DNA of 64,000 nt from an uncultured virus (IMG/VR IMGVR_UViG_3300020358_000003). Taxonomy: Duplodnaviria > Heunggongvirae > Uroviricota > Caudoviricetes. The stretch is taken from IMG/VR virus record IMGVR_UViG_3300020358_000003; one strand, written 5' to 3'. The translations under genes were made by a program, and so were the position numbers. Position 1 is the first letter of the stretch, and every line of letters starts with the position of its first letter. The notes under the pieces were generated by a model. The model searched no databases and was not told where the DNA came from. It saw only the letters and a list, made by a program, of their open reading frames with translations. Shown here piece after piece: positions 3,513 through 59,021 of the stretch.

Positions 3513-4730
3513 ATGACTAGAAAAATTACAGTAAATTTAACTGATAAAATAGAAACGTGGCGTAATGCGACAAACACTATGTCTGGATATGTAGGTGAAC
3601 CTGATAACCTCACTACAACTAATAAAACCGATTTGGTTCAAGCAATTAATGAGATTAAGGCAAGTTCTGGTTCAACTTACGTTACTACAGCATTAAGTCT
3701 TGTAGCAGGTGGTAACGGTAGTCATACTACATTGTCTTACGATTCTAATAGTGGTCTATTTTCTTTTAGTTGTAGTTCAATAAGTCCATCACATCTTGAT
3801 CCTCTGCCAGCAAGTGTAATTACCAGCGGTACGTTTACCACCACTAGAATTCCAAATCTAGCAACAACTAAAATAACAACTGGAGTTTTTAATAAAGCAA
3901 GAATTCCAGTAATCCACAATCTGGATGGTCTTTTAAAAGATTCTCAAGTTGGGTTTACTACTTCACATGTTCCAGAAGGAAGCCCTAATTTATATTTTAC
4001 AGATTCTAGGGCGCGTGGATCATTTAGTACCGATAGTGATATTACTCTTGATTCTAATGGTAAAATTGGCCTTACGTTATCAGCGGCAACTCTGGCATCA
4101 ATAAATAATTTTAATGCTTTGGGTGGAACTGGTGTTACTATTGGAAGTTTTGATTCTATATCTATTGGTCAAGAAGTTGACTCAACATCTAGTGTAATAT
4201 TTAATACTATCAATTCAGCGGCTATAACATCTACTGCTGGAATTACAGCAACAACTGGAACATTTAGTAGCGCACTATCTGGTGCTTCAATTACTGGTAA
4301 TATGGTCGCAGATAGTTTTGAGGCAGATAGTGGTCTTTTAAGTAATTTAATTATGACTCCTTTCCAAGTAAAAAGACAAATTTCTGGAAAACTAGCAACA
4401 AAGTATGTAAGTTCTTATGTTGGAATGTCAAATGCTGGTCAAAATGTTTTTGCTCATGGTTTAGGTGCAGAACCTGATATTATAACTTATAGGCTTAAAT
4501 GTATTACTCCTGAAAATGGATATGTGGCGAATGATATTATTGATATACATCCAAGTACGGACAATGAAGGTCCAGAACAAGGGTTCGGTACGGTAGTAGA
4601 TGCTACAAATGTAACTCTCAGAATTGCAACTGGGGGGCCAGGTATATATCAAGATAAAAATACTGGTGGGACTAGTATATTAACAGCAACACATTGGCAA
4701 GTCCAAGTAAAAGCATTTATAATAGCATAG
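3513..4730 (+). CDS. Virion fibre or baseplate-associated structural protein
   Basis: LTTTNKTDLVQAINEI coiled motif, EGSPNLYFTDSRAR fibre repeat, S/T/G-rich, follows a late promoter. Confidence 0.65.
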   Translation: MTRKITVNLTDKIETWRNATNTMSGYVGEPDNLTTTNKTDLVQAINEIKASSGSTYVTTALSLVAGGNGSHTTLSYDSNSGLFSFSCSSISPSHLDPLPASVITSGTFTTTRIPNLATTKITTGVFNKARIPVIHNLDGLLKDSQVGFTTSHVPEGSPNLYFTDSRARGSFSTDSDITLDSNGKIGLTLSAATLASINNFNALGGTGVTIGSFDSISIGQEVDSTSSVIFNTINSAAITSTAGITATTGTFSSALSGASITGNMVADSFEADSGLLSNLIMTPFQVKRQISGKLATKYVSSYVGMSNAGQNVFAHGLGAEPDIITYRLKCITPENGYVANDIIDIHPSTDNEGPEQGFGTVVDATNVTLRIATGGPGIYQDKNTGGTSILTATHWQVQVKAFIIA

Positions 4731-4741
4731 AAAGATAAACG

Positions 4742-5965
4742 ATGGTCAAAATAGTAGATTTACCAATTGCCACAAGTAGTGATTTAGATAGTAATCTAAA
4801 TTTTTTGGTAGTAACAGGAACCAATTTATCTGGTGGTTTTGCCACAGCAAAAGTTACTTTAGCAAACTTAGAACAACATTACAATAATACTGGGGCTTTG
4901 ACAAGTAGTGGAGTTCAAGCACTTGTAGATTCCAATTATATTTACACCAAAATAAATAGTTCCACTTTAAATAATTTAACAAAACCCACTTCGGTTGCAT
5001 TTTCAAATATCACTTCCAAACCCACTACATTAGCAGGTTATGGAATCAATGATGGTTTAAAATTTAGTGATCTTAAAGATGAGGACGGTATGGCATCAAA
5101 TAGTGCATTACACGTTCCAACCCAACAATCGGTAAAAGCATATGTAGACGCGAGGATTCTGACAAAAGATAATACTGATGAAATTACTGAAGGTTCAACA
5201 AACCTATATTATACAAACGCAAGAGTAACTACTCATGTTGATAGTGATTATATAGCGGCAAGAACAACTGATATTACGAGTGCTGACCTTAATATGGGAA
5301 GCAATAATATTATTACAACTGGTAAATCTTTGTATGCAAATATGTATTCTACAGAAGGAAATCTTCCTTCAGCAGCAACTTATCACGGTATGTTTGCTCA
5401 TGTGCATGGAACTGGGAAAGGATATTTTTCTCATGGTGGGGCTTGGCATAAATTAGTTGATGAAACGAACCTATCAACTCAAGTTGATTCTGCATATATA
5501 TTAGCGCGATCTTCCGCTGGAGTCGATTCTGCTTTGATACTTAATACTATAACTGATCCAAAATATCTTAGGTCAGATGTATTAGATAACGGACATTCAT
5601 TATCCCTATCATCAACATTACATGCTGATGGTGCGATTACATCAAATGCTGATATTACTGCATTTAATTCTGCTTCTGATAGAACATTAAAAGAAAATAT
5701 TGAACGCATTGATAATGCTCTTGATAAAGTCGGTACACTTGCTGGATATACATTTAACTATAAAGGCCGAGAAGAAAAAATGTCTGGTCTTATGGCAGAT
5801 GAGGTTGAAGCAGTACTTCCAGAAGTTGTTTATGAATTTGATGGCGAACATAAAGCAATTCGTTATGGTAACATGATGGGTCTTATTGTAGAGGCAATAA
5901 ATGAGTTAAGAACGGATGTTGAATATCTTAGGGAAAAGATAGAGTCTAATGCCAACACCATTTAA
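4742..5965 (+). CDS. Tail fibre with C-terminal intramolecular chaperone (peptidase S74-like)
   Basis: SDRTLKENI cleavage-site motif, then GYTFNY...GLMADEVEAVLPEVV...IRYGNMMGLIVEAINEL coiled coil. Also VPTQQSVKAYVD and EGSTNLYYTNAR fibre motifs. Confidence 0.85.
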   Translation: MVKIVDLPIATSSDLDSNLNFLVVTGTNLSGGFATAKVTLANLEQHYNNTGALTSSGVQALVDSNYIYTKINSSTLNNLTKPTSVAFSNITSKPTTLAGYGINDGLKFSDLKDEDGMASNSALHVPTQQSVKAYVDARILTKDNTDEITEGSTNLYYTNARVTTHVDSDYIAARTTDITSADLNMGSNNIITTGKSLYANMYSTEGNLPSAATYHGMFAHVHGTGKGYFSHGGAWHKLVDETNLSTQVDSAYILARSSAGVDSALILNTITDPKYLRSDVLDNGHSLSLSSTLHADGAITSNADITAFNSASDRTLKENIERIDNALDKVGTLAGYTFNYKGREEKMSGLMADEVEAVLPEVVYEFDGEHKAIRYGNMMGLIVEAINELRTDVEYLREKIESNANTI

Positions 5966-7253: not shown

Positions 7254-7640
7254 ATGGCACAATCTGAAGATATTATGGTTGATCAAGGAAGTGATATAAC
7301 ACTTAGACTTGAATGTTTTGAAACTGATGGTAGTAAAAAAATATTTAAAAAACTTGATCCGAGTAGTGGTGGAACAATCGCACCATATGTCGCAACTGGA
7401 AAAATAAAAAAATCATACTCAACAAGCGATTCTTCTGCTATATCATTCGGAACTTCATTTCTTGATCTTGATAATCCAAATATATTACAACTATCACTTT
7501 CAAATACTATAACAGAAACAATGAAATCAGGAAGATACGTTTATGATGTTGAATTAAGTTATCAAGATTCTGCAACTAACACAACAATAGTTGAAAGAAT
7601 ACTTCAAGGGACACTTACAGTATCACCAAGCGTTAATTAG
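7254..7640 (+). CDS. Small virion structural protein
   Basis: DIMVDQGSD...GRYVYDVEL...RILQGTLTVSPSV pattern typical of T4-like marine phage structural genes. GGAGAG SD. Confidence 0.65.
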   Translation: MAQSEDIMVDQGSDITLRLECFETDGSKKIFKKLDPSSGGTIAPYVATGKIKKSYSTSDSSAISFGTSFLDLDNPNILQLSLSNTITETMKSGRYVYDVELSYQDSATNTTIVERILQGTLTVSPSVN

Positions 7641-8099: not shown

Positions 8100-11000
8100 A
8101 TGCCAGCAACTATAAGAATAAAACGATCATCAAATGTTGATACCCCATCAAATCTTAAAGTAGGTGAAATAGCGTATTCATATGCTGAAACATCCAAAAA
8201 ACTTTTTATTGGTATAGGGCCAGAAATAAATGTCACTGGTGATGCATCCAGAATTGCTACGATTGGTGGTGAATATTTTACATCACTTTTTCCAGATAAT
8301 CCAGGAATAGCACAAGATGGTAGACTAGTATTACTAGATGACAGTCGCGGATTAGATTATCTAAAACTCCAAAGTCTTGTTGGCGATTCTGGTAGTTTTA
8401 ATAATCTAAGTGTTGACAGTGCATATATTCGTTTTTTCAATGCAGACAGTGCGGTTATAAAAGGGCTTATTTCTGATTCCGCGCACATTACATTTTTGGA
8501 GGCAGACAGTGCCTATATTCATGATCTTCGTGTTGATTCTGCTTATATACAATTTGCCGACATTGACAGTTCCCATATTGACAACTTGCGTGTTGATAGT
8601 GCTTATATACGTCATTTTGATATGGATAGTGGACACATTGATAATGTTTCTATCGATTCTGCTTATGTCAAATTTATGGATGTTGATAGTGGTCATGTTG
8701 ATAATCTAACTGTAGATAGCGCGTATATTAAATATGCTGATATTGATAGTGGGCATATTGATAATGTAACGATTGACTCAGCATACATTAAATATGCTGA
8801 TATTGACAGTGGGCATATTGATAATGTATCTATTGACAGCGCGTACATTAAATATATGGATGTTGATAGTGGACACATTGATAATGTAACGATTGACAGC
8901 GCATACATTAAATATGCTGATATTGACAGTGCATATATCAATGATGTAACGATTGACAGTGCATATATTAAATACGCTCTTATTGATCATACTGATATTG
9001 ATAGTGCAGATATAGGTCAAGTAGATATTGATAGTGCTTATATTTCTAGAGCAGATATTGACAGTGGTTACGTTGGACAACTTATGTCCGACTCTGCAAG
9101 AATTACATACGCTCATATTGAAACATCATATCAACCATTGATCACTGGTCCATCAGAAATCGTTATTGATCCTGCTGGTATTGGTGATAATACTGGTCGC
9201 GTTCTTATCAAGGGCGATTTACAAGTTGATGGTATTCAAACTATTATTAACTCAACAACAGTTTCTGTAAATGATAAGAATATCATTTTAGCAGACGAAG
9301 CACTGGATAGTGCTGCTGCTGATGGTGCTGGTATTACTGTTTTCAGTAATAGAAGTTACAATGACCCAGTTCACGGTAGAGGAAGTTTTACTTATCAAGC
9401 AGATGCATCTGGTTTTCAAGGGCAAGTTAGCCCAGCACCTGGATTGTGGAAATCTAGTCTGCCTATGGAAATCGCTGGTGGGTTGCATATTGGTGGGAAA
9501 TTAAGTGGTGTTGATAGCGCACACATAGCGCGTATTAGCGGTTCTTCAATTTTATATGATTCTGGGCGTATTGGACAGTTTGTTTCTGACAGCGCAATGA
9601 TTTCTGAACTTGAGGGCTTGAGGGCCGTATATTCTCTTGGATATTTTGATAAAATTTTTGTTGATAGCATATATTCACTTCAACTTACACCTCATGGTAT
9701 TCTTACTTCTGAACCGGGACAAGGTAGACTTGTAAATGATGATGGGTTTATAAGAACACAAAATCGTACATGGCAAGATCATTTGGGGTCATTGGACGGT
9801 ATTCATTTTGGCAAAGAAACTGTTAATGGTAAAGGTCCAGACCCATCAGCAGATTCTTCTTACTATCACTTAACATTAACAAAATCTGGAAATATATTTG
9901 CAGAAGGTTTTAGAATTGGTGGCGATTACCATAAACCTACTGGACAATCAGCGTCACTTACACTTAATTATGGTTCGCAAACTGGAAAAGGCACTTCATA
10001 CGCACACGATTTCTATGGTCTTGAATTAAATGACTCTCAACTAACATCCACGCTACAGAAAAATGTTTTCAAATCTGATTATAGTTTTGATAGTGCAACA
10101 ATTGGTGGTGGTGTTCACGCAGTTCTTTACGATAGTGTGGGTAATCCAGGAAGTAGTCTTATTTCTTTAAAAGGTGCTTTAGATAGTAATTTAATATCAT
10201 TTCACAAAGATGGTTCTATTGATTTCTATGGAGATATGTATAGAAAAGGTGAAAAATTCATTGGTGGTGGCATTTTCCAAAAGCAATTTCTTCCTTATGA
10301 TGTTAATGATGTTTTCTATTTACCTACCATAAGAGAACCTGGAGTTACTGACGTATTTCAAATCGGAGCCAGAATTGGTATTGGTACTAATAGACCAGCA
10401 CATGCATTTGATTTCAGAACAGATACCACTCTTATAGGTAATCTTTTTCAAGTATCTGGAAGATTAAATACATCAGCACAATATTATGCTTTAAATACTG
10501 TGGGGGGTGGAAGTCCAAGTATAAATGATCAATATCAAATTGTTGTAGATTTAGATAGTGATAAATCCAGAATGATGTTTGATCCTGCTAAAGCAAGATT
10601 TAGGGCTGGATATTTCGTAACAGGCGCAATTAAAAATACTGAAATGGGTACTTATTCCACAGCATTTGGTAAAAATACCATTGCTAAAGGAACTGCTTCA
10701 TATGCTCAAGGAGATTCTTCTGAAACGTATGCGGATGGTTCATTTGTTTCTGGAACTAAGTCAATTATTAATGCTGGTGCTACAACTAGTATTGCGATTG
10801 GTAAAGAAAATATTGTTAGTGCCAATGCATTAACCAGTATTGCTTTTGGTGAAGGTAATCAAATAACATCATCGCAAGGAATTGCGATTGGTAAGGCTAA
10901 TACAGGAGTTGGTGATAAATCAATTTCTATTGGTGACACTCAAGTTACAAGTGGTGCTGGTGCAGTCGCGATTGGTATAGGAAATCAAATAACAGGCAGT

Positions 11001-14000
11001 GCATCAATTGCTATAGGTGGTACAAGTGCTGCTGGAAATACGGTTTCGGCAACCAATTCAGTAGCACTTGGGTTTTCACATAATATTGCAGGTTCCTATA
11101 ACTTTGCATTCGGTGAAGGTATAACTTTTCCTAGTACGGCGCAAGGTTCTTTTGCTTTTGGTAAAAATGTTAATGTTGGTGGTGACCGCTCTATTGGTAT
11201 TAACTTAGGTGCTGGTGCGGCTGGTACTGTTGGAGAATTTTTACCACTCTCAAATATTCATGATAACTTTATGTCTATTCAAGGTGGTAATGTTACAATT
11301 GGTAGTGATTCTGATTTAACAAAAATGGCAGTACCTGTTTCAAGTGGAGTTGGTAATCTTTATGTAACTGGTGATCTTATCTATAGCGGAGAAAACCTTA
11401 AATTACTAGCAGATGGGACACTACTACAAAATTCACCATGGAGTGATAACGGACTTCAAATCACATACACAAATGGTAATAAGCCTATTGGTATGCATGT
11501 CGCGGTTCCAAACGTACCTGTGGAAGCGGAAGGAAATCGTGGATTTATCTTTAGAGGAACTTATAGTGGATCATATACAAGTAAAATAGGTCAGGGTGAG
11601 CCATTCTTTGATTCTTCCGATACTACTAAAGCACTTTCTAGTTTTAGTAATGTTTCTTCAAATGTTGCTCTTATGGCATACTATCCTTTGGGTGATGTAT
11701 TTAGAGTTGGTCAAATTAATGCAAATGCTGATCATAGAAATGATACTATTGGCGCACATTCTATTGGTATGGGGTACTTTAATAGAGTTGATGGAGACTA
11801 TGGAGTTGTTCTTGGTGGTGATCAGAGTAGAGTTGATGGAAACTATAGTGTTGCTATTGGCGGTAGATATTTAAAAGCGGATGGACAATATGCTACAAAT
11901 ATTGGTGGTTATACCAATTCTACTGGTAATAGGACTAATGTAACTGGAGACTATAGTAGTAACTTTGGTGGATCATATGCATTAATTGTTGGTGGAACAT
12001 ATAACACAAATGTTGGTGGTTACCAAAACAATATGCTTGGTAACTATAATATTATAGCAGGTGGTTATATTAATGAAACGACTGCTGATGCAGAGTGGGG
12101 TGCGATTGTTGGTGGTCAACATAATGATCTTGCTGGTGATATTGGTGTTATAATAGGTGGATATAATAATGATATCACATCAACATCAACAACATCTGGA
12201 ATTTTCTCATCATATTCAAGTGAAATAAGTGGTGATCATGGTGTAATTGTTGGTGGTCAAAATGTCACCATTTCTTCTGGTGCGAGTACGTCAGGTAATG
12301 CCAGTTTAGGTGGATACGACATTAACATTAGTGGAGAAAATAATGTTAGTGTTGGTGGTTACTCAAATACTTTGACGGGTGGACGTTGGAACACAACTGT
12401 TGGTGGTCGCGAACTACAAATTACTGCAAATGCCAACTATTCTATAAATCTGGGTGGATATAATAATGATATTGATGCTTCCAACAGTGCAAATATTGCA
12501 GGTAGGAATACCGATATTGGCACAAATGCCAACTATTCAGTAAATGTTGGTGGATATAATACCCATCTTGACGCAGAATATTCGGTAAATATTGGTGGTT
12601 ATAATACTGATATTGGAGATGTATCTGGAAATCTAAGCACTAGTTATTCTATTAATATTGGTGGTTATGGTAATAAAATAGGAAGTAGTGCCAGAACCGT
12701 TGCGAATTCTGTTGTAATTGGTGGTGCAAGTGGTAATCCAAATGAAATGCGATCAACTAATTCGTATTTTGTGGGTGAAGGAAATAAAGACTCTGCTACT
12801 GCACATACAACATACAATAATCACTTTTCGGGACACTCTTCTTATAATGTTTACGGTGTTGGATCATTAGGAACACAATCAAAAAATTATTGGATTGGTT
12901 TTAATAATACTGTTGCTGGTGGAAGTACTGGTTATGTAAATGTTACTCCTGCAACTAATGTTTCAGAAAATTTCATTTTTGGTCAAAACAATAAGATACA
13001 TACCACAAATGGTAAAGGAAACTTTATTATTGGTAGAGATGTTACTCTTACTGGAAATCAAGAAAATCAAATTATTTTAAATAACCCTGATTCAGCACTT
13101 GATATATTTATGGATAATACAAAAGTTGCTATTGGTAAACATACTGCTGAATATGCCTTAGATATTAGAGGTACGCTTAATATTGGTGGCAGCAAAGTAA
13201 ACGGTGTAAATCAAGTAGGTGGTGATAGTTATATAGCATCAATTCTTATTAATGATCAAGATATTAGAGATTATGTTGCTGGAGTTGATCCTTCAAATAA
13301 ACAAATAGAAATTGAACAAGCTGCTGTACCGTTACCAACAGCAACTGTTGTAAATATTACACAATCTAATCCGGGTATTGTTATCATAAGAAATACAAAT
13401 GGTATTTTGACTGATGGTAAAACTGTTGAATTTAATTTACCAAGTTTAACTAATATAGGACAATTCTTAAATGATTCTATATTTGCGATAAAAAATATTG
13501 TTGGTGGGATAGGCGATAGTTTTGAATTATATGATGGTGCGACATTTGCTGATGTAGCCACTCGCGTAGGTGTCAATACATCAAAAGGGACAACTCGCAA
13601 TAAAGGAGCAGCAGGAAATATTACATTAGGTAGTACTGTTCCATATGTTTATGGTAATACTGGAACACAGTATGATTCAGCACAATTTGATTCTTCTGGT
13701 ACGGCAGAGAATGGCGTACCAACTGCTGAAATAGTCTTTGGGCAATACGTATCGTTAAAAGCACTTCCGATTGTTGCTGGTGGTGCTGGTACTATAGCAC
13801 CAAAAAGATTTAAATCTAGTGTAATTATAGATAGTGATCTTATCGTTCAAGGTACGGTAACACTTAATGATTCTGTAGGTATCGGTAAAGATTTAGTTGT
13901 AGGTGGTAATCTTGATGTTTCTACTGGATATTTAAGAACTGGTGGATATTTAGATGTAAATACTCATGGTAAATTTGGAGATTCTGTTACTGTAGGAACA

Positions 14001-17000
14001 AAGTTAAATGTAAACGGAATATCATCTTTCAATGGTACGTCAACTTTTGGCAAAAATGTGGTAATGGATAGCAATTTAACAGTTGCTGGTGCAGTAACAC
14101 TTTCTGGTGGAATAAAAACTGCGACAACATTTGTATCAACAGATAGTATGCAGATTGGTGGACGTTTAAGTGGTGTCGCGAATTTGGAAATGGCTGGTGC
14201 AATAGGAACCGTTACCACCTATAAAGGCACCGATAGTATGCAAATCGGTGGACGTTTACATGGCGTTACCAGTTTGACTATGGCTGGGCCACTCAAAACA
14301 GTCACCACCTATAAAGGCACTGATAGTATGCAGATTGGTGGACGTTTACATGGCGTTGGCAGTTTGGAAATGGCTGGTTCGTTGGGTACTGTTACCACCT
14401 ATAAAGGCACCGATAGTATGCAAATCGGTGGTCGTTTAAGTGGCGTTGGTAGTTTGGAAATGGCTGGGTCAATAGGAACCGTTACCACCTATAAAGGCAC
14501 CGATAGTATGCAAATCGGTGGACGTTTAAGTGGCGTTGGCAGTTTGGAAATGGCTGGTTCGTTGGGTACTGTTACTACCTATAAGGGTACGGACAGTATG
14601 CAGATTGGTGGACGTTTAAGTGGCGTTGGCAGTTTGGAAATGGCTGGATCAATAGCGACTGTTACTACATTCAAATCAACAGACAGTATGACTATTGGTG
14701 GTGATTTAACTGTTGCTGGCGCAGTTTCTGGGGTAACATCTTTAACTGCTTCTGGTCCAATTACATTTGCTGATAGTATTAGAATTGGTGGATCAGTTCG
14801 TTGGTTAGACAACTCAGTTGATGATAGTTTTTATATTGGTAATTTAAGTTTTGATAGTTATGTTTTACGTCCTAATAGTAAAATTCTTAGTTCTGTCGTA
14901 AGTTATTTTGATACTGACTATGTACAGCAAAGAGTAGATTCATTCAACTCTTGGGTAATTTATCCAGATGCTCTTGTTTATAATCCAAACGATGGACATA
15001 AAACTGTAGCGATAGGTCTTACAAATAACCAAACATGGACGGGTTGGAATCCAGATATTAATGGTGGTGGAAATGCTGCTTACGCTAGTAATCTAAGTAA
15101 AACTGGAACTACCATTGATGATGCTACTGATGATAGTAACCTTACACTTGCTTCCTATAATACCAGACACACTGATTTTAGTAGCGGTGTTGGAGATTCT
15201 ATAGGACTTGATGTTCAAGGTAGAATTAATATCAGGACTACAGATAAAGAAGGTGATGATTATATTAGCAATCCACCGATTGTCTTTAGCGGCGATGGTG
15301 GTGGACAAACTGCTTGGCCCAATAAGGCTTGGTTGCGACAAACTGGTTATATTGATCAACCATATATTAGAAGTAAAATAGATGCTGAGTTCTTGCAAGA
15401 AGCCTTTACAGCGAATTCGACTGCAAGTGAAGAATCAAAAGCGTTCTTTAGAAGTATGCTTGACTCTGCATATATTATTAGTGTTTGGGATTCTGATTAC
15501 TATTGGAAGCACGATAGTTTCAATGCGGTTTACATTGGCGCACCAGGACAACTGTATGATGGAACTCATGCTAGTGGGTTATATTATGACGGTAATATAA
15601 AACTTGCTATTAATAAAAGAGGCGACTCAGCAACTCATAATCTTGATCTTCGCGGTAACGCAAGGTTTGAAAAAAATCTTTTAGTTGAAGATAGTGTGAC
15701 TATTGCTGGAAGTTTAAGTGGTGTAACATCTTTAAATGCTTCTGGTCCAGTTACATTTGCTGATAGTATGACTATTGGTGGTGATTTAACAGTCGCTGGT
15801 GCAGTATCTGGAGTTACCACACTTATCACATCTGATAGTGTATATATTGGTGGTAGTTTACGTGTTGAAAGTGATTTAACCATTGGTGGTGGTTTAACTA
15901 CTATTGGACATTTTAATATTGACTCTTTTGTTAATATTGGTGGTGCTGTTAAAATTGGATCATTTAATGGTAGAGATTCTGGAGATGGTCTTGGTGTTTA
16001 TGATGCTAGTCAAATAAAAGGAAAAAATGGTCTATATGTTGGCGATAGCACTCATTTAAGAGGTGGTCTAAAAGTTCTTGGACATGATAATGTTCTTGAA
16101 GAAGCATATGTATTTACAATTGATAGTAACTATGTACAAGAAAGTCAAACAGTATCTTTGAATAATACTCAAATTCAAAATGCATTTGGACCCAATGATG
16201 CAGATTCTCATATTGTATTATCGTTTACAGATTCTGTAGATTTTAACTTCTTACGAATTACGAGAACTACTTCTGCTGGAGCAACAGTAGTTTTAAACAG
16301 ATTTATTGACTATGATTCATTAGGCAATAGGACTCTCTTTGATTCGTCACAGTATGGTTATGGTTCACCATCTCACAACTTAATGACAAATCAAAATAGA
16401 CTTAAAAATGTTTATATTAAAGAACCATCAGTATTAAATACTGATACACAACTTCATGGGGCAGAACTTGTTGCTCAGAGTGATTCTAATTCTAAACTAT
16501 CAATTATTATTGGTGATAGAATTATCACGGTTGGCGGTACTTCTATTCCAAGAGTCTCCAACATTATTGATGATGCTAATAATTCTCTCGCTATTAATGC
16601 TGGTCTTTCTTTGTTTGGTGTGGTTGATCCAATTGTTAAACTCACAGACTCTATTGGTACAGTAAAAGGTCAATTATTAAAAGACCGCGATTTCACTATT
16701 GTAGATTCATTTGAAATTAGAGTGTTTAGTGATCTTAATGTTGTTCCTGGTTTATTCCCATCTGCTTATGGTGTAACAGATTCAGCGAGTATGATTCTTG
16801 GTGATAAAATCACAATTCAAGATAGAACTCCTACACTTACAAGCAGAACAGAAATTGTCGGTCCAACAAATTTATTTGGTCATGTTACTCTTGGTAATGA
16901 AGCCATGGCACATGCTGCTTATCCAGGATATCCTCATACTGGTTCTAGACTAACAACTCATGATAGTTTTGTCGTTAAGGGTGGGATGCACTTTGAGAGT

Positions 17001-20000
17001 AGTGGTGATCCAGTAGTAAGAAACAGAATTCAATTTGACGGTGATGTTCATGTTGACTCTGGAAAAGTTTGGTTTTTTGGTCCTAAGAAAACAGTCTCGC
17101 ATAAAGTACCAGCCTCATTAATTGATGCAACTCAAGATGGGTATGGTCATTATCAAAATATTAATCCAGCAACCACATTTGATTCTAATCTTATAGTTGG
17201 TATGGATTCTCACATTGTTCAAAATGTTAAGGCAACTACTGATCCAATTGATCTAAATGCAACTCGTTTAACAGTAAATAATTTATCAATCAGAGATGGT
17301 TCAGTATTCTTATATGGACCTTTGAGAACAAGATCACATTTGAAACAAGATAGTGACGGTATAGGTGGGCTATTAGGCAAAGTAGAGTCTGATGGTAGTT
17401 ATAATGGAACAATTACAGGAATTCAACGCTATATTGATTCGCAATATCAAGTTACTTTGGATTCCCATGTTGTTGATATTTTACAAAATCCACCACTACC
17501 AGTATTAAACTTTCTGAAGCCTGTGACATTCTCAAAACCTGTTATAATGCAAGACAGTTTAACTGTCCAATTTGTAAATGCTGATTCAGCATCAATTGAT
17601 CAGTTAGTTTCTGATAGTGCTTATATTAAGTACGTCAGAATTGATAGTTCCTATATCAGTCAATTAATTGTTGACAGTTCCAGAATTGGGCATTTGATAG
17701 TAACTGATAGTGCTACGATTAAACAATTTACTTCAGACAGTGCTAGAATTAGTCAATTAGATGCTGATAGTGCTTATATAAAAATTCTGAAAGCAGACCA
17801 AATTTTAGACACATATATTAGCCAATTAATTGTTGATAGTGCTAACATTGGTCAATTAGATGTTGATAGTGCTTATATTAAACAACTAAAATGGGATGTG
17901 GTTGATAGTGCTTATATCAAATACGCCCAAATTGATGACGCTTACATTAGCCAATTACTTGTTGATAGTGCTAGAATTAGTCAATTAGATGCTGATAGTG
18001 CATATATCAAAACTGCTAAAATTGATAGTTCTTATCAAACTTTGATTAGAGGACCAAGTGAAATCACTATTGATCCACTTGATGTTGGAACTAACACTGG
18101 CAAAATTCATGTCAAAGGAAGTTTTGAACTTACTAATGGCGACTTTACTCTTGATTCAATGTCACGTATGTTTGTTGGGGAGCCAATAGACTTCTACAAA
18201 TATGAATCCGATGGTTCTGGTAATAGAACAACATTTGGAGAAAATGTTCTTAATCCTAATCATGAAAATCACAAATATCAACGCTTTCAACATTTCTTTG
18301 ATCGGTCATCAAATCATTTCCAGACATTTGATAATACAAAAGTTGATGCTGGTAATGTAGTTTTCAAATATGAATCCGATGGTTCTCCTGTCGTTGGTGG
18401 TAAAGGATTTACCACACCAAATGGTAATTTGCACCATATATTAGTGGATAGTTTTGATGTAGTAAATGTTGATAAGTCTTTAAACATTTTCCGAAAAACT
18501 CATAGACTTGATCTTGATTCACATATTGGTAGAATCGTTGATTCAGATTATGTCGGTATAAGACTTCAAACTCCTTGGAAGATTGAAAATGTGTCCCTTG
18601 GGGTTCAAAAGAAAATCTTCTATGATGATGAAGGTGCGGTTATTATAGGACCAAAGACCTTATTAACTGGTGATTTAGCAACAAGATTTGTTGTTGACTC
18701 TGGAAATGTAATGTTCTTATCCAATAATTTCCAAAGTGGTATTTCTACTGGCGCAGGTGGTGCTGGCATTGCAGATAATGACGTTAGTACTGTTATTCGT
18801 GGAAATGTTCCTAATAAGGGCGCAGAAGCAAGATTTATGTGGATACCACAGAGAGGTGCGCTCAGAATAGGCGCATTAGATCAAGCAGGAGCGAGTGATT
18901 ATTGGGAAGATAGTGAAGTAGGATATCAGTCTATTGCAATAGGTAATAACACTAAGGCATCACATTTCTCAACAGCATTAGGTTTTAACGTACAAGTTGG
19001 TGAAGTCAAAAAATCTGCGATAACAGCATCTAAAAATAACAATAACAGTGTTGCTTTTGGTCAAGGTATTGATATGCCCCAGCGCAACAGTGTTGCTATG
19101 GGTATTGGTATTATTACAAGACCTACTAGTAATACTAGCGGCACTCCAGTTCCAAATAATTCATTCATCTATAACAAAGAACAAATTGTATCACTCGGAT
19201 CAAAAATTAACTCAGCGGGTTCTTTCAATACTTCATTAGGAAATAGAATAACAATTGGGTTCAATACTGGAATTGCGAATGATCAAGGCCAATTCCCATT
19301 CATGAACCCAAATACTTCTAACAATGTTACAGCAATAGGTAGAGACTTACTTGCTTATAGAACATCTGATAGATCATTAATGATTGGTGCTAACAGTGTA
19401 GTTAAAAAAGAAGATACAACTTCAATTGGTAATAATAATCAATTAGATAAGCAATATACAATTGCTATTGGTAATGATAATTTATTACAAAAAGAAGATG
19501 CTCTCGCCATAGGCCAAAATATTATAATGAGAAGTCGCGCACAAGGTGCGGTTGGTGTTGGTAAAGAAGTTAGTGTGCATGGGAAAAATGCTGTTGCGAT
19601 GGGTAGAAATGTTCATGTGACAAGTGGTACTGGTGCGGTTGCTATTGGCGCAGACGGTAAAGTAACTGGTACTGGTGGTGTTTTTGTTGGATCACAAGGT
19701 ACTGCATCACAAAAATCAGTCGCGGTTGGTAGTTCTGTTTTTGCTGGTAATCATGGCGTAGCAATTGGTAAAAATGTTAGAAGTCACGGTTCACAAGGAT
19801 CAATAGCATTAGGATATAATGCTTATTCTGGTAGCGGTGGTTTTGCCATTGGTAATAATGTGGTTGGTAAGACAGGCGCAGTTATGGTTGGTCAAGGTAA
19901 TAGTGGAGCCAACTATAGTACTATTTTCGGTCTTAATAGCACATCTAAAACTGGTGGTGTTGCAATTGGTAGTTACGTTCAAAATACAGGTAATTATGCT

Positions 20001-34675: not shown

Positions 34676-34686
34676 ATTGATAATCA

Positions 34687-34694
34687 TATAAATA
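34687..34694 (+). promoter_or_regulatory. T4-type late promoter TATAAATA
   Basis: Exact consensus, intergenic. Confidence 0.8.
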
Positions 34695-34721
34695 GTAGAG
34701 AATAATTAAGGATAACTGAAT

Positions 34722-48252: not shown

Positions 48253-48254
48253 GT

Positions 48255-51200
48255 ATGAAAAATGATATTCTAAAGTATATAATACATCCACAAGGAATTA
48301 CTGGAACATTAGATTTAAGAGATAATGCTGAGATAGAGTTTCCTTTTAACACAATAAGTGTTACTATAGGAATAGATTTAGATCAAACTTTTGAGCAGAA
48401 TAGGGCTTGGAAACCTGTCACTATTGATGGAGTTGATGTTAGTTCTGATTACCCATATTTTAGACCCAATAATTACGTTTGGGAATATACTTCAACAATA
48501 CCCACAGACCCAATATTCTCTGATGTTGTAATACAAACGTATTCTTCCTCAAATGAAAATACTGCTAAAAATGATATGTGGTCTGATATCAATCAACCAA
48601 CATATCAAGGAATAAAATTAAAATTAAAAATAGCACCGTCTGATATTATTTTAGGATCAAATTCTGGTGTGGTCATATCATCTGGATCAGAAGATTCATC
48701 TACTGGATTAACAGATTCATCTAAATCAAATAGTGTGTTTAGTGGTCTTGTCGCGGATAGTGGTAGATTTAATGATCTTTATGCTGACAGTGCATATTTT
48801 AAATATCTCAGGGCAGACAGTGCCGATATAAAATGGTTAAGGGCTGATAGTGTTGATATTATCTCTCTTAGGGCTGATAGTGGATATATAAAACAATTAA
48901 CCTCAGATAGTGGATATTTTAAATATCTTAGGGCAGATAGTGGATATATTTCTCAATTTAGATCAGATAGCGCAAAAATATCATTCTTGAATGTTCCAAA
49001 ACTAAGTGGTGATAGTGCAAGTATTCAATCAGAACTTAGAGTGGGCAGGTATGTTTTTGACGCTGGTGAATGGGATAGTAATGATTTATTAACAGATATT
49101 AATGCACTTGCTAAAGATGACTTTGGTGGCATTTATTATACTCAACCAGATTCTATAAGTGGTATTAGAGAAAAATTTGCACATGTAAAGTATGACCAGA
49201 TAGATAAAAAATGGCAATTTTTTCCGAATTTAAATATCTCTGATCTGGATAGTTCTGGTGTCGTTGATAGCGAAAATGCAGTTTCAAAATCATCCAATAT
49301 GCCTTTTGGAGAAGGTGAGAACGGACAATTTCTTTTCTATGATAAATTTCAAAAAAAGTACGATTGGGATTATATTGTAACAAGTGGTAAATTTGTATTT
49401 GATAGTGATCAATTATCAAATGCTCTAAAAAATATTCCTGCTGATCTTGGATCAGATTCGGATAAAGCAGAAAGTTTAAAACAATATTTTGATTATAAGT
49501 TTTATAGTCATGGTGATGAGAAATTTATTGAAAGTGGTGGAAATTTAATATTAGTACAGTCTAATATTGATAACCTTAATTCATTTAACAACCACGACAA
49601 AATAAAATCTGCGAGGGTGAATAACCAAAATACATACGTGTATTTAGATTCCAATAATCATACATTTAATACTACTAATTTGGATTCTGATAGACTCAAT
49701 ATAACATCTAAAATACAAAAAATTAATAAATCTATTAATGGAGTTTATTCAAATAGTCCTTCACAATCCTATACATTGCAAGCAACATTTAGTGCTGTTG
49801 ATAGTGAAAAACAAACTGGTGCTATGGGTATATTAGTTGGATTAATAAAATCTGGTTTAGATGAAAAAACATTAACTGTATTAAGAAGCACTAGACAAGA
49901 CGGTATGTTTGATTCTGATATAGATATGGTAAAAACTCGCGATGACTACCCATTTAATTTTGAATTAGTATATAATGCTGGTCAAGCAGATGAAACTGTA
50001 ATTAATATGGGTAGAATAGTTGAAGCACCACCAATTAATACTGATGCATCATGGGATTCTAGTGGTCATGTTGTAATTAAGGTTCAAAAAAGAGACTATA
50101 GTTTAGTAATAGAAACGAGTCAGTTTGGAGACTCTTCAATTGATCCTCTGACAACGAAAAGAATTGATCTTTATGATAACTTAGGAATTCCCTCAGAAGT
50201 AGATTATCTTGATTTAAGAGAATTTGGAAATCCTGTTCATTATGGATTTGCGTTTGATAAAATTTCAAATGCAACAGTGAAAGATATATTATTCTCTGAA
50301 GGCGTAGAAGGTTTGAATCAGACTGATGCAAACACTGTTGTAGACTTACAAAATAAAACAGCATACATATATTTTGATAGTGATAAAGCATTAGATTTTG
50401 GGGTTTCCAAAGGATATCATCAGACTGATAGTGATGGTTTTGGTGGGCCTATTGTTGGCGGCGATATAATTACTGGTAGACTTTATCATAATCCAGAATT
50501 AGGTGCTACTTGGTATCAAGACCCATATTCAACATTTCAAATAGGGCAAGTACAAAGTAAGGCCCAGCAGAAACTCTTAGATGGCGTTAAATTATTCATA
50601 GCAGGTGGTTATGATGGAGATAAACGCAGAACAATAGAAAAAGATGATCTTGGGTTAGAAGGCATTGATAATAGTTTTATAAAAAATGAAAAAGGTATAA
50701 CACTCACAGTTTTTACAGATATTGGTGATTTAGTCTCAACTACAAATTATGATATAGATGCAACGGTTGATACTAGTGGGGTTGTTGCTCAACAAATGGC
50801 AACAGATTTAACTGCTTTGAGAAATGGTGGAACTAATAATATTTGTGTAATTACATCTTTTGGTAATTGGAAATATACCGATTCATTTTTAATAGCAGAA
50901 TTAAAAGAACATGGTTTAGTAAAATTATCAGCGGCTGGTACGGCAGCAATAGGAAATTATCAATATGCTGCTATTTTTCAACTCGGATCAAAAAGTAAAG
51001 TTTATGAAGTTGCTGAGTTTGCGGATTCAATAAATCAGGCAATGATAAGAGTTTTCATATTAAACAAAACCTTTTTCTTAATTGGTGGAGAAACTAATAG
51101 TAATAGCGCACTGACTAATTTTAGAGGAACTATTATTGCAGAAACTACTGGAGCCAACGATTTAAAATTAAGTGGTGGTGTTATTGCTACCACACCATCA

Positions 51201-53735
51201 ACATTTAACAGTACTGTAAATGTTGCTGCTGGTGCTACAAACGGTATTCATTTTCCAGATGAAGCATTTGCTTCTGATGCTGATGACCAAGCAAGAATAT
51301 ATTTGATTGATAGTCCAAACGCATCTGGGAATCAAATTTTAACAATAGAAGTAAAAAATGACAATACCGATTTAATCAACCTTAGTACTCCAGAGTCTGA
51401 TGGTAATGGAAAGGGTATGAAAGGGTTACGTCATAATATGAAATCAATATTCTCTGAGGGATATTTAGATATTTCATACGATGACAGTCCTAGTTTGGGT
51501 GGAAATTTAAATATCAAAGAGTATAAAATATTTAGTAAGCCTTCAGATGATGAGTGGGAAGGAGATAAACCAACATTTGAGTTTGATTACGATGAAGCAG
51601 CAGATGATACAAATAGTACCTTATTATCTAGTTATAATTCAATATATAACTTTTTAGATATTACTAATAACTCAACTGGAAAATATTTTGGAATTTGGAA
51701 TAATAAAAATCCATATAGTGATACCGTAAATTCTGGAAATTCAATCTTTAGAGTAGATGAGAATGGGGATGTTAATGTAACTGGAGTATTTAATACAGTT
51801 ACTACAGATGGACTTACGGAAGGATCAACAAACCTTTACCACAGAGATAGTAGAGCAATTATTGCTGTACAAAATAAAATATCTGTAACTACTGTATCAG
51901 CGGCTGGTGGGGGTGCATTATCGTGGACACCTTCACCAGATGCTGTTCAAGATGGTATTCTTAATTTTACGCCAGCACTTTCTCATAGCGTCACTACTAG
52001 TGATCCTGATGGAAGCACATCTACTTTAGCATATGATGCTTCAACTGGAGCATTTACATTTAAATCTGCAAAAATATCAGATATTGTAGATTCAACACTT
52101 GAAAATATTAGTGTGGCAAATGCAACTCCTAGTGGAAATGCAAGTTCTCTTGCATATAATAGTGGTACTGGAATTATTACTCTAACACCAGCGGATATTC
52201 CAACAACAGCAAAAACATCTATTTCTGTAACTAATGACGCAAGTAATAGAGAAGCAGGTGGCGAAATAAGTTATGCTGAAGGTACTGGTGTAATAACATT
52301 TAAAAAGGATTATCTCTTATCAGTCACTAATGCAACACCATCTGGTACAGGAAGTCTTGCTTATAATGGAACTGGTAGTTTTACTTTCACACCACCTTCT
52401 GCTGGTAATGGGTTAACTGTAACGACAAGTGCGGCACAATCTAGAGTACCAGCGGCATTATCACATTCAAATGGAACATTTACATTTAGACCAGCGGAAC
52501 TATTTCCACCAATATCAATCATAGATACACCATCTATACCATCTCATGGTGAAGGAAGTTTAGCATATGATTCCGCAACTGGTGTTTTAACGCATCTTAG
52601 AGCGGCGACAGTAAATCTTTTAAATTTTAGAGGAACTACAGATTCTGATAATGCTGAGTTTGGAAAAGTAGGTACAATTAGTTTTAGTTCTGATTCTAAT
52701 TATGGAATTGGTACTTTTAAATTAACTCCTGGATATTTTGCTACCAATATAGATTCGTGTCTGGACACTACTTTAACTATACCACATGCTGGGGAAACCA
52801 TGGGCCAAGTTTCGGCAGCAGTTGTTGCTACGAAACCTTCTGTGATGATGTTGGATAGTAGTGCTGCTATAAAGTTTTCAAATAGAAGAATAAGTTTAGG
52901 TGATTTAGTTAATGTGGCAGATAGTGCTAATGCCGCTCTTGGTTTTGTATTAACAAAAACACATCAAGGGTATGCAGATGCTACACCACACGGTTCTAAT
53001 TTTGAATTTAAAGCACTACCTTCTTCAATAGGATTAACAGATTTAAGTGTTACTGGCCTTACTAGTGCAGATGATGTTAATGGAAATATTGTTTATGACA
53101 ATACTAATGGAGAATTTTCTTTTAAACCACCATTTTTTATTGGTAGAGTTACAGGCGGTAATGGTGGGACTACTACACCAGATGCACATAATGGAATTGT
53201 GACTTTTGCTGCTGATGGCTCAAGTGGTTTAACTGTATCAGCAAGTGGACAAACAGTAACAATTGATGCTTCAAGTGTAGGTGGGTTCTCTGTTGACAAT
53301 AACGCAAATAATAGAATCGTCACTGCAACTGGTAGTGGCGGTAACGCTGAAGCAAATGCTACTTTTGATGGTTCAACATTAGCGATTGCTGGTGCAATCA
53401 CTGCAACTGGAAATATTAGTGCAGAAGGGAATGTTATTGCTGCTGCATCATCAGATTTAAGACTTAAAGACAATTTGGAAAAAATTGATAATGCTCTTGA
53501 AAAAGTTAGCAGATTAAATGGATATACATTTACTTGGAATGAAAAAGCAGATAAAATTTTCTCATCTAAAAATGATGTAGGTGTTGTAGCACAAGAAGTT
53601 GAAGAAGTTCTACCAGAGATTGTTATAGATAGGGCAGATGGTTATAAGGCCGTTTATTATGAAAAATTAGTTCCTTTATTGATTGAATCAATCAAAGAGT
53701 TAAAGGAGAGAATTGAAGAACTGGAGAAAAGATAA
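48255..53735 (+). CDS. Large fibre protein (1826 aa) with C-terminal S74-like intramolecular chaperone
   Basis: SDLRLKDNL...GYTFTW...GVVAQEVEEVLPEIV...VYYEKLVPLLIESIKEL; LAYDxxTGxFT fibre repeats; DS decapeptide array. Confidence 0.85.
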   Translation: MKNDILKYIIHPQGITGTLDLRDNAEIEFPFNTISVTIGIDLDQTFEQNRAWKPVTIDGVDVSSDYPYFRPNNYVWEYTSTIPTDPIFSDVVIQTYSSSNENTAKNDMWSDINQPTYQGIKLKLKIAPSDIILGSNSGVVISSGSEDSSTGLTDSSKSNSVFSGLVADSGRFNDLYADSAYFKYLRADSADIKWLRADSVDIISLRADSGYIKQLTSDSGYFKYLRADSGYISQFRSDSAKISFLNVPKLSGDSASIQSELRVGRYVFDAGEWDSNDLLTDINALAKDDFGGIYYTQPDSISGIREKFAHVKYDQIDKKWQFFPNLNISDLDSSGVVDSENAVSKSSNMPFGEGENGQFLFYDKFQKKYDWDYIVTSGKFVFDSDQLSNALKNIPADLGSDSDKAESLKQYFDYKFYSHGDEKFIESGGNLILVQSNIDNLNSFNNHDKIKSARVNNQNTYVYLDSNNHTFNTTNLDSDRLNITSKIQKINKSINGVYSNSPSQSYTLQATFSAVDSEKQTGAMGILVGLIKSGLDEKTLTVLRSTRQDGMFDSDIDMVKTRDDYPFNFELVYNAGQADETVINMGRIVEAPPINTDASWDSSGHVVIKVQKRDYSLVIETSQFGDSSIDPLTTKRIDLYDNLGIPSEVDYLDLREFGNPVHYGFAFDKISNATVKDILFSEGVEGLNQTDANTVVDLQNKTAYIYFDSDKALDFGVSKGYHQTDSDGFGGPIVGGDIITGRLYHNPELGATWYQDPYSTFQIGQVQSKAQQKLLDGVKLFIAGGYDGDKRRTIEKDDLGLEGIDNSFIKNEKGITLTVFTDIGDLVSTTNYDIDATVDTSGVVAQQMATDLTALRNGGTNNICVITSFGNWKYTDSFLIAELKEHGLVKLSAAGTAAIGNYQYAAIFQLGSKSKVYEVAEFADSINQAMIRVFILNKTFFLIGGETNSNSALTNFRGTIIAETTGANDLKLSGGVIATTPSTFNSTVNVAAGATNGIHFPDEAFASDADDQARIYLIDSPNASGNQILTIEVKNDNTDLINLSTPESDGNGKGMKGLRHNMKSIFSEGYLDISYDDSPSLGGNLNIKEYKIFSKPSDDEWEGDKPTFEFDYDEAADDTNSTLLSSYNSIYNFLDITNNSTGKYFGIWNNKNPYSDTVNSGNSIFRVDENGDVNVTGVFNTVTTDGLTEGSTNLYHRDSRAIIAVQNKISVTTVSAAGGGALSWTPSPDAVQDGILNFTPALSHSVTTSDPDGSTSTLAYDASTGAFTFKSAKISDIVDSTLENISVANATPSGNASSLAYNSGTGIITLTPADIPTTAKTSISVTNDASNREAGGEISYAEGTGVITFKKDYLLSVTNATPSGTGSLAYNGTGSFTFTPPSAGNGLTVTTSAAQSRVPAALSHSNGTFTFRPAELFPPISIIDTPSIPSHGEGSLAYDSATGVLTHLRAATVNLLNFRGTTDSDNAEFGKVGTISFSSDSNYGIGTFKLTPGYFATNIDSCLDTTLTIPHAGETMGQVSAAVVATKPSVMMLDSSAAIKFSNRRISLGDLVNVADSANAALGFVLTKTHQGYADATPHGSNFEFKALPSSIGLTDLSVTGLTSADDVNGNIVYDNTNGEFSFKPPFFIGRVTGGNGGTTTPDAHNGIVTFAADGSSGLTVSASGQTVTIDASSVGGFSVDNNANNRIVTATGSGGNAEANATFDGSTLAIAGAITATGNISAEGNVIAAASSDLRLKDNLEKIDNALEKVSRLNGYTFTWNEKADKIFSSKNDVGVVAQEVEEVLPEIVIDRADGYKAVYYEKLVPLLIESIKELKERIEELEKR
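48750..49020 (+). repeat. Decapeptide DS array (ADSxYxKxLR)
   Basis: ADSGRFNDLYADSAYFKYLRADSADIKWLRADSVDIISLRADSGYIKQLTSDSGYFKYLRADSGYISQFRSDSAK. Confidence 0.9.
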
Positions 53736-55329: not shown

Positions 55330-55353
55330 ACAGTATAATAAGGAGATATTGAA

Positions 55354-55665: not shown

Positions 55666-55670
55666 ATTTA

Positions 55671-55678: not shown

Positions 55679-55711
55679 CACTATAGATTAATAAAAAAGA
55701 GTTATAATTTA

Positions 55712-55906: not shown

Positions 55907-55909
55907 GAC

Positions 55910-56560: not shown

Positions 56561-56573
56561 AAAGGAGTCAAGT

Positions 56574-57656: not shown

Positions 57657-57668
57657 GGAGTATCCATT

Positions 57669-59021
57669 ATGGAAATGAACTACAATCAATTGATTGAAAA
57701 GTGGGCCCCGGTTCTCAATGAAGAATCTGCTGGTTCCATCCAAGACAAGCACCGCAAAGCAGTTACTGCTGTTGTGCTTGAAAACCAAGAAATTGCTTTG
57801 CGTGAGCAAGCAACACAACAAGGTGGTTTCGGTCAACTGACAGAAGCAGCACCAGCAAACAACACTGGTAATGTTGCTAACTGGAACCCTGTACTTATTT
57901 CGTTGGTTCGCCGCGCAATGCCAAACATGATGGCATATGACGTATGTGGTGTTCAGCCAATGACAGGTCCAACTGGTCTGATTTTCGCAATGAAATCAAC
58001 CTATGAAACAACTCGCGGTGGCGCGACTGCTGACAATGAAGCACTCTTTAGCGAAGCGGTAACTGCTTTCTCTGGAGATTCTGCTGCAAGCATGGTAAAC
58101 GATGGTTCTGGTCTTTCTGGTGTAGGAGATTCAGCATCAGGTGACTCGTCTATTGACAATAACCGTAATGATCCTGCTGTTGGTACAACTGGAATGACTC
58201 TCGCCAATGGCGAACTTCTGGGTACAACTGGCGCAAGCGCATTTGCTGAAATGGGTTTCACCATTGAAAAAGCAACTGTATCTGCCAAAACACGCGCACT
58301 GAAAGCGGAATATTCGCTTGAACTCGCACAGGATTTGAAAGCAATTCATGGTCTGGACGCTGAAAGCGAACTCGCCAACATTCTTTCAACTGAAATCCTT
58401 GCGGAAATCAACCGCGAAGTAATTCGTACCATTAACTCACAAGCAAAAACTGGTGCATCCACTGGTAACACCTTGTTGAATGGTATTTTTGATCTTCAAA
58501 CAGATGCTGATGGTCGTTGGAGCGTTGAGAAGTTTAAAGGTCTCATGGTTCAAATTGAGCGTGAAGCCAATAACATTGCCAAAGAAACTCGTAGAGGTCG
58601 CGGTAACTTCATCATCACATCTAGTGATGTTGCATCGTGCTTGGCAGCAACTGGTATGTTGGATTATGCTCCAGCAATGTCAACCAACTTGAATGTTGAT
58701 GACACTGGTAACACATTTGCTGGTGTTCTTAACGGACGCACAAAAGTATATGTTGACCCATATGCCACTATTGACTACATCACTGTAGGTTACAAAGGTA
58801 CAAATGCATATGATGCTGGTATCTTCTATTGCCCATATGTACCTCTCACAATGGTTCGCGCCGTTGGTGAGAATGATTTCCAGCCAAAAATCGGTTTCAA
58901 AACCCGTTATGGTATGGTATCAAATCCATTTGTTGGTGGCACACCAGCAAACGGTCTTGCAACAAAGCAAACAAACCAGTACTACAGAATCTTCAGAGTG
59001 GACAACATTCTGGGTGCATAG
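57669..59021 (+). CDS. gp23: Major capsid protein gp23
   Basis: GVQPMTGPTGLIFAMK, RALKAEYSLELAQDLKAIHGLDAE, FYCPYVPL, FQPKIGFKTRYG. Confidence 0.99.
   Translation: MEMNYNQLIEKWAPVLNEESAGSIQDKHRKAVTAVVLENQEIALREQATQQGGFGQLTEAAPANNTGNVANWNPVLISLVRRAMPNMMAYDVCGVQPMTGPTGLIFAMKSTYETTRGGATADNEALFSEAVTAFSGDSAASMVNDGSGLSGVGDSASGDSSIDNNRNDPAVGTTGMTLANGELLGTTGASAFAEMGFTIEKATVSAKTRALKAEYSLELAQDLKAIHGLDAESELANILSTEILAEINREVIRTINSQAKTGASTGNTLLNGIFDLQTDADGRWSVEKFKGLMVQIEREANNIAKETRRGRGNFIITSSDVASCLAATGMLDYAPAMSTNLNVDDTGNTFAGVLNGRTKVYVDPYATIDYITVGYKGTNAYDAGIFYCPYVPLTMVRAVGENDFQPKIGFKTRYGMVSNPFVGGTPANGLATKQTNQYYRIFRVDNILGA

Follow-up and report, generated by a model that had tools for sequence, protein, structure and literature searches.

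Glycosylation of virion proteins has been reported for a few mycobacteriophages, including Che8 and Rita, whose phage-coded glycosyltransferases give capsid and tail subunits a glycan shield at single terminal sites, placed in the available text of these reports at the C-termini of the capsid and tail tube proteins (PMC11256854; PMC12619734). In this study, we describe an Asp-Ser (DS) dipeptide signal in the late proteins encoded by a 64,000-nucleotide stretch of DNA from an uncultured marine T4-like phage (IMG/VR record IMGVR_UViG_3300020358_000003; hereafter the window), and we think it probable that DS, where the next residue is small or acidic, is a tag for serine O-glycosylation by a phage-coded system. 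In contrast to the mycobacteriophage sites, those found here number in the hundreds, are internal, share a short sequon and spare the tail tube. A literature search, from whose scope subscription journals and bioRxiv supplements were excluded, returned no paper on a DS tag or on virion glycosylation in marine T4-like phages.

Three bacterial systems offer further points of comparison. In staphylococci, according to the accessible sections of the reports, the cytoplasmic enzymes SdgA and SdgB read an Asp/Ser pair as an O-glycosylation signal on adhesin stalks, which carry it in long tandem SD runs (PMC3794999; PMC8561734). The Bacteroidota O-glycosylation motif, D-(S/T)-(A/I/L/V/M/T), places Asp before the acceptor and favors Ala at position +2, as DS does here; as far as the excerpted report goes, that system uses Thr as well, transfers its glycan en bloc in the periplasm and works only beyond the cytoplasm (PMC8729774). 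Maf enzymes transfer sugars activated with cytidine monophosphate (CMP), either nonulosonates or Kdo, directly to Ser and Thr of flagellin, and the available parts of these papers describe recognition of local conformation and report no sequon (bioRxiv 10.1101/2020.06.03.131540; PMC11339370). It is to the Maf of M. magneticum (PDB 5MU5; PF01973), a cytoplasmic enzyme that moves a CMP-activated acidic sugar directly onto a polymeric surface appendage, that we liken the proposed system.

The Asp-Ser signal in the window

Annotation with PHROG and Pfam identifies the window as a late-gene region encoding neck proteins, gp15, terminase, sheath, tube, portal, protease, scaffold, gp23, UvsW and gp55. 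Counts of DS are given below as observed/expected, the expectation being computed from each protein's own composition. The excess is greatest in a giant fibre of 5747 residues (8100..25343; all features are on the plus strand), with 159/45.0 (p 9e-40), of which 70 are DS-A/D, spread over 10-residue beta-helix-like repeats, 9-residue helical repeats and unique linkers. It recurs in a 405-residue fibre-like protein (3513..4730; 9/2.5), a 923-residue protein (31904..34675; 12/5.7), a 628-residue repeat protein forming a collar appendage and carrying the C-terminal part of gp14 (39618..41504; 17/5.7) and an 1826-residue fibre with an S74 chaperone domain inserted after the portal gene (48255..53735; 37/17.0). 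In gp15 (4/1.3) three DS lie in the C-terminal tail (42173..42292), and in gp23 (3/1.4) all three lie in a single loop (58077..58148). The 2186-residue protein (25344..31904) has a weaker excess (26/18.3, p 0.05 only), with 23 of its 26 DS in the first 400 and last 486 residues and three in the central 1300. Five DS in a 407-residue S74 fibre (4742..5965) are not significant alone, and a 128-residue fibre-assembly/adaptor protein (7254..7640) has two. These values bear out the hand counts of an earlier note on this DNA, as well as its placing of terminase (2/2.4), UvsW (3/2.1) and portal (3/2.7) at background. Moreover, no excess was seen in the sheath (2/3.1), in the tube, gp13, the gp14 core and gp3 (no DS in any), or in two fibre-like proteins of 589 (2/2.7) and 399 residues (0/2.1). 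The earlier note had called the signal virion-wide; the DS excess is in fact peripheral, being present in fibres, collar, the outer part of the baseplate and a single surface loop of the capsid, and absent from sheath, tube, portal and neck.

When nine window proteins picked for their DS excess were pooled, DS ranked first of the 400 dipeptides (272/99.5, z 17) and DT ranked last (32/80.7). In an unselected set, the 13 long Ser/Thr/Gly/Asn-rich proteins of the window, DS stood at 280/112 against 105/112 for SD, that is, ratios of 2.5, the strongest signal in this analysis, and 0.94; neither SD nor DT, ES, NS or DD was enriched. The hexamers that code for DS occur 272 times in frame versus 4, 11, 11, 19 and 16 times in the other five frames, and the serine is encoded by AGY in 141 cases and by TCN in 131. 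Because the signal is confined to the reading frame, a cause at the DNA level such as a motif or methylation site is rejected, in line with the view that selection acts on the protein. Once similar flanks are collapsed, 204 of the 272 contexts remain, and the giant fibre without its five repeat blocks still holds 75/26.4. An artefact of composition or of repeats is ruled out by the dipeptide, gp23-loop and gp15-tail, and repeat-free counts together. It had also been proposed that DS sits inside generic fibre motifs; the five motifs quoted are indeed present, at 3987, 51831, 5201, 34773 and 22389, but the NLY..R motif contains DS in only 3 of 25 clade matches.

The residue following DS is most often Ala (75 of 272), then Ser (36), Asn (30), Asp (30) and Gly (23). 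Unlike the tandem staphylococcal runs, the pair is dispersed and directional, with just 4 DSDS/SDSD among the 272, and no SdgA/B-type gene was seen. The analogy drawn earlier with the Bacteroidota sequon does not carry over. Threonine is avoided after Asp (DT-A/D 2 versus 13.8 expected), and the Bacteroidota +2 set A/I/L/V/M/T follows DS in 116 of 272 cases versus 37.5% background, with the entire excess coming from Ala; I/L/V/M/T account for 41 of 272 (30% background) and D/N for 60 of 272 (15% background). These figures also bear on the idea that a host enzyme, for example of Bacteroidota type, reads DS, while glycosyltransferase genes of the phage serve lipopolysaccharide, DNA or chain elongation. 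We hold this to be very unlikely, even though the Bacteroidota motif likewise begins with D-(S/T) and prefers Ala, with DSA 9-fold enriched in the phage clade described below, and even though phage glycosyltransferase clusters are usually read, in the accessible portion of one report, as host-surface modifiers (PMC12801897). The avoidance of DT and the lack of enrichment of I/L/V/M/T tell against it. T4-like virion proteins assemble in the cytoplasm, and the Bacteroidota system acts outside it.

Directionality weighs likewise on a role for DS through Asp or without any modification, as a cation-binding or acidic surface motif or as a substrate for Asp hydroxylation, which we regard as remote. 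DSD is common, and the window's fibre genes are adjoined by genes for a 2-oxoglutarate-Fe(II) (2OG-Fe(II)) oxygenase and two radical S-adenosylmethionine (SAM) enzymes (74..3478). However, SD and DD, equally able to bind cations, are not enriched, and both the order and the serine are fixed. Of 15 clade contigs, just one carries the 2OG-Fe(II) gene and three carry the radical SAM genes; these genes were rejected as modifiers, and the beta-hydroxy-Asp suggested earlier finds no support.

Distribution of the tag and selection on its residues

The gp23 comparison covered 164 distinct sequences, drawn from two scans (the best 80 of about 600 candidates in each), references and fetched contigs. The nearest named gp23 is that of phage C48C1 (65%), followed by those of methylo-, pelagi- and cyanophages (56–60%). 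In a FastTree phylogeny built with the loop removed, and subject to long-branch caveats, the window's gp23 belongs to a clade of 129 sequences (support 97). The loop of these 129 holds DS at 359/135 and SD at 100/135, and 121 of them have at least two loop DS. In 22 sister sequences of the same Asp and Ser content only 7 loop DS were found versus 19 expected, and among the 35 sequences outside the clade three, Melnitz included, have two or more. The loop, placed by alignment to T4 (the single-sequence gp23 fold has a predicted local distance difference test (pLDDT) score of just 34.6), corresponds to T4 gp23 residues ~158–227 between the I-linkers and takes the place that the insertion (I) domain has on the outer capsid surface of T4. 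In T4, the I domain makes surface protrusions, according to the available text (PMC9546572). One RNA run (X17) contained a gp23 variant in which differences and indels are concentrated in the loop (58098–58217), indicating that the loop is hypervariable. The gp21–gp23 and sheath genes are covered by RNA-library contigs in 3/3 RNA runs, though contigs of this kind cannot show expression, and marine metagenome runs contain window DNA.

At the gp15 tail the same pattern is seen. Of 30 clade sequences, all except L239 have a DS within the final 45 residues, and at the clade-fixed site DSD-F/Y-GF (42245–42250 in the window) Melnitz has DGD, HTVC008M has DDD, and P-SSM2 and S-SM2 both have GDD; two of seven sequences outside the clade have one DS at another position. 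Across ortholog families, whose values are drawn from related genomes and are not independent, gp8, gp7, gp15 and the 128-residue adaptor show 2.2–2.4-fold DS in the clade versus 0.9–1.1 outside it (no outgroup gp7 was matched). Thus gp8 stands at 2.42 versus 0.97, gp15 at 2.27 versus 1.06 and the adaptor at 30/13.6 versus 3/3.4. Families of inner parts are low (gp6 0.45, gp19 0.28, gp13 0.18, gp3 0), and gp17, gp25 and gp48 likewise fall within 0–0.45. DS is therefore not equally common in homologues, and on these alignments the tag is a trait of one clade, gained at orthologous exposed sites.

Moreover, both residues are retained. When window proteins were aligned with those of the relative G008, the Ser of DS was kept at 224 of 234 sites compared with 789 of 958 other Ser (p 2e-8), and the Asp at 229 of 234 compared with 501 of 569 other Asp. 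Replacement of Ser by Thr was found at no DS site and 34 times elsewhere, and that of Asp by Asn or Glu at 0 of 234 DS sites versus 23 of 569 others. The gap in Ser retention persists against the more distant G018 (p 2e-10) and G007 (p 0.006), and that in Asp retention is weaker (p 0.003 and 0.06).

This conservation bears directly on whether DS is an unmodified structural element, an Asx-turn, helix-cap or beta-helix corner motif spread by repeat expansion. Most DS of the giant fibre do lie at the corner of the 10-residue repeats (DSAYIxxAxI) or at the start of short helical repeats (VDSAYV), and D-S-x-Y-V/I makes up 211 of 276 clade matches. Turn and cap motifs, however, usually tolerate conservative swaps (Ser to Thr, Asp to Asn or Glu), and the lack of such swaps at DS sites counts for a tag. 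The excess outside the repeats, and the occurrence of DS in flexible segments that are not fibre, namely the gp23 loop and the gp15 tail, where outgroups have DD or GD, point the same way. In unrelated phages similar repeats carry many other pairs: by a rough pattern covering four loci, DS stands at the corner in 3 of 95 fibre matches versus 35 of 48 here (one of the 95, from L635, is a chance match to a pentapeptide repeat), and an atlas search with the 10-residue repeat gave sub-threshold matches only. We therefore judge a purely structural role unlikely, although it is partly right about place, since the tag is set where the fibre repeat turns outward.

Candidate glycan machinery in relatives

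No glycosyltransferase or kinase was found among the 35 open reading frames scanned in the window, as had been noted. Phage-coded glycosyltransferases, a feature shared with the mycobacteriophage systems, are instead found in its relatives, including the linked contig G023, which carries an entire glycan cluster at 30–42 kb. G023 matches G008 at 91% over 27.7 kb and G008 matches the window at 88–92% over ~35 kb, which, provided that gene order is conserved, would place the cluster about 48 kb upstream of the start of the window. When gene families were compared all-against-all across 10 genomes of the clade and 7 of the outgroup, an enzyme family co-varying with DS, of the sort the earlier note had proposed to look for, did emerge within this one clade: a ~200-residue Maf/Cst-like protein is present in 9/10 clade and 0/7 outgroup genomes. 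A multi-copy GT8-like family, an archaeo-eukaryotic-type (AEP) primase and two small proteins have the same distribution; uridine diphosphate (UDP)-glucose dehydrogenase is found in 9/10 and 1/7, and GT25 in 8/10 clade genomes. The Maf/Cst-like gene is single-copy (198–224 residues, one domain) and stands last in a co-oriented glycan cluster, which is looser in C48C1. Of 80 loci around it, 78 include a GT25 and 76 have a GT-A-like gene as the immediate upstream neighbor; methyl- and sulfotransferases, epimerases, a RuBisCO-like protein and a nucleotidyltransferase are variable members. Glycosyltransferases of TAGT type were rejected as modifiers, being present in 3/15 clade contigs.

The model of the Maf/Cst-like protein (pLDDT 89.8) has the PF01973/Maf_flag10 fold, with Maf 5MU5 as best structural match (Z 11.0, root-mean-square deviation 3.5, 165 aligned residues, 10% identity), followed within about two Z units by SteA (9.8), CstI (9.6) and MptE HPPK (9.1), and further by ST3Gal (8.4) and thiamine diphosphokinases (6–7.1). 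Top Foldseek matches are sialyltransferases, with E 2e-3 for the CstI/CstII fold. A wider profile (A5) matches CstII of Campylobacter jejuni GT42 (E 2e-4) over profile positions 1–122 only, aligning the N-terminal motifs GNG, CN, SG and G-x-D; in the core family the SG motif is replaced by CG. NCBIfam gave no match. Invariant D46, E123, D142 and E171 are candidate equivalents of the catalytic Asp and Glu of 5MU5 (D324 and E415). The candidate nevertheless differs from the described enzymes. Maf has 632 residues, and the candidate, whose activity is predicted, corresponds to its central domain only; Maf proteins generally are multi-domain (~430–630 residues) and encoded next to flagellin genes, whereas the candidate has one domain and lies among glycan genes of the phages (the search did not extend to longer fused forms). 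The Cst enzymes, for their part, cap glycans rather than proteins.

We assume, as the probable course of events, that a phage-coded cytoplasmic transferase would read D-S when the next residue is small or acidic (A > D, S, N, G) and would modify the Ser hydroxyl on exposed parts of late proteins, namely turns, the tips of loops and the starts of helices. The Maf/Cst-like enzyme, of GT42/GT29-type fold, is the best candidate for the first step; GT25, GT8-like and other GT-A enzymes may then extend the chain, and sulfo- and methyltransferases may cap it. The outcome would be a variable, probably acidic sugar coat on the capsid loop, collar, outer baseplate and fibre stalks that leaves putative receptor-binding zones bare, and it might serve shielding, solubility or mimicry of the host surface. 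T4-like heads contain several hundred copies of gp23, and with 2–4 sites per copy and trimeric fibres the coat could comprise thousands of sites. A bolder version is possible, but we put it forward only tentatively: this abundant clade may possess its own sequon-directed general protein O-glycosylation pathway, in which a minimal Maf/Cst-fold enzyme reads the tag and starts a sulfated, methylated chain containing uronate or Kdo, giving a glycosaminoglycan-like coat at thousands of sites per particle, with a cluster that, much as O-antigen loci do, differs from strain to strain.

The same fold matches allow that DS marks Ser for phosphate, diphosphate or glycerol-phosphate rather than a glycan started by the Maf/Cst-like enzyme. 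Its likeness to MptE and thiamine pyrophosphokinases (Z 6–7), the weak match of 52/100 family members to PF01973 (MptE-like; best E 0.0023) and a TagD-like cytidylyltransferase in 10/15 clade contigs are consistent with this. Yet the candidate's context is one of glycan genes, its profile matches CstII and not kinases, and the TagD-like gene is also present in 3/7 outgroups; such a modification seems quite improbable to us.

Co-occurrence of gene and tag was measured as the DS-A/D ratio in long Ser/Thr/Gly/Asn-rich proteins. It is 2.8–6.1 in 13 of 16 contigs with the Maf/Cst-like gene, the others being C48C1 (1.7) and two fragments that lack the main fibre genes, G023 (1.9) and G026 (0.9). All seven outgroup genomes, which lack the gene, have 0.6–1.2, three of them being incomplete (83, 77 and 39%). 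The gene has 1247 homologue clusters and occurs on at least 551 viral contigs, and among 50,697 phage records it was found in one, C48C1, which is also the top gp23 match. The earlier view of DS as a surface-decoration tag is partly supported, by the clade-restricted gain at exposed sites, the retention of both residues and the glycan cluster with its Maf/Cst-like gene in relatives; it is narrowed as to extent, the signal being peripheral, and the chemical modification itself is presumed.

Several points weigh against the glycosylation of DS by this cluster. Firstly, whereas the tag, its restriction to the clade, the selection on it, its position in the I-domain loop, the cluster and the fold are shown, a modification of Ser, its glycan nature, the initiating enzyme, the donor and the purpose are inferred; the cluster itself is known from relatives and from G023, outside the window, and many DS are located at repeat corners and helix starts. 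Secondly, all positives lie in one gp23 clade, so the co-occurrence is one evolutionary event, and other clade markers (the AEP primase and small hypothetical proteins) track the tag equally well. The GT8-like family, multi-copy and missing from the fragment G036, does so nearly as well as the Maf/Cst-like family, and may be the initiator. Moreover, 12 of the 16 contigs were found through the cluster (7 by the GT8-like and 5 by the Maf/Cst-like gene); G002, G007, G012 and C48C1 alone were found without it. Thirdly, the match is imperfect. C48C1, complete and bearing the gene, has an overall DS ratio of 0.92, although its gp15 has DSD-YGF and one of its fibres has 31 DS versus 17.7 expected (SD 28); overall DS is 1.14 in G021, 25/33.6 in the fragment G026 and 43/44 in the fragment G023. 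Distant members of the fold family (E 1e-6 to 1e-11) are present in the DS-negative marine T4-like phages G003 (70054–70764), G004 (138116–138868) and HTVC008M (752–1309, 4180–4983 and 77489–78319), in none of which a Ser/Thr dipeptide besides SG stood out, so that it is the subfamily, and not the fold, that tracks the tag. Fourthly, MptE (Z 9.1), thiamine diphosphokinases (7.1) and SteA (9.8) share the fold, and since CstII acts on glycans the candidate may be a capping enzyme and not the initiator. Scans of 48 G018 and 98 G007 proteins revealed no CMP-sugar synthetase; host CMP-Kdo is a possible donor supply. Finally, P-SSM2 is rich in glycosyltransferases, as the available text has it (PMC12801897), yet DS is not in excess there; clusters of this kind may therefore have functions other than decorating the virion.

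If the glycosylation reading holds, many ocean phage particles would be glycan-coated, given how widely the candidate gene occurs, and a testable substrate would be at hand for the glycosyltransferase clusters of marine T4-like phages, which have long lacked an explanation. A short sequon would then run across many unrelated virion proteins of a large, almost wholly uncultured marine clade, and a 200-residue cytoplasmic, sequon-reading O-glycosyltransferase would become available for glyco-engineering. To this the window contributes the orthologous-site tests in the capsid loop and gp15 and a linked contig with the cluster.

Neighboring genes and further observations

Some zones of the large fibre proteins are poor in DS: residues 881–1560 (two DS) and 3611–4335 (none) of the giant fibre and 400–1700 of the 2186-residue protein. 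They consist of Gly/Asn/Ala-rich repeats, which resemble adhesin heads, and are candidate receptor-binding parts left bare. The gp14 gene is split (39013–41504) into a 201-residue core and, after it, the 628-residue repeat protein, at whose end stands the C-terminal part of gp14. At 48255–55303, the 1826-residue S74 fibre and a 522-residue Gly-rich partner lie between the portal and head-core genes; in G007 a pair of 2006 and 407 residues occupies the same post-portal place, and such a pair may be a head-linked fibre.

The 2OG-Fe(II) oxygenase/radical SAM cluster lies between baseplate and fibre genes (32–42 kb in G008), and the radical SAM genes number at least five once G008 is included. A 312-residue clade gene next to an epimerase, which had been considered among the candidates, proved to be the AEP primase, a clade marker; it adjoins the epimerase and UDP-glucose dehydrogenase (L126:6787–7725 [G007] and C48C1 34380–35324), and its only matches among named phages are C48C1 and five Vibrio phage records. 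Within the glycan cluster, the RuBisCO-like protein adjoins the nucleotidyltransferase at 19/80 loci (e.g., L532:5057–6145). A six-gene cassette in G018 (47865–51091), encoding small proteins with signal-peptide-like starts, is present in 5–6/10 clade and 0/7 outgroup genomes. Across the whole window (1–64000) AGCT is strongly avoided (4 seen, 143 expected), as are TCGA (7 versus 65) and, more mildly, CCGG (14 versus 35), which points to restriction sites of the host.

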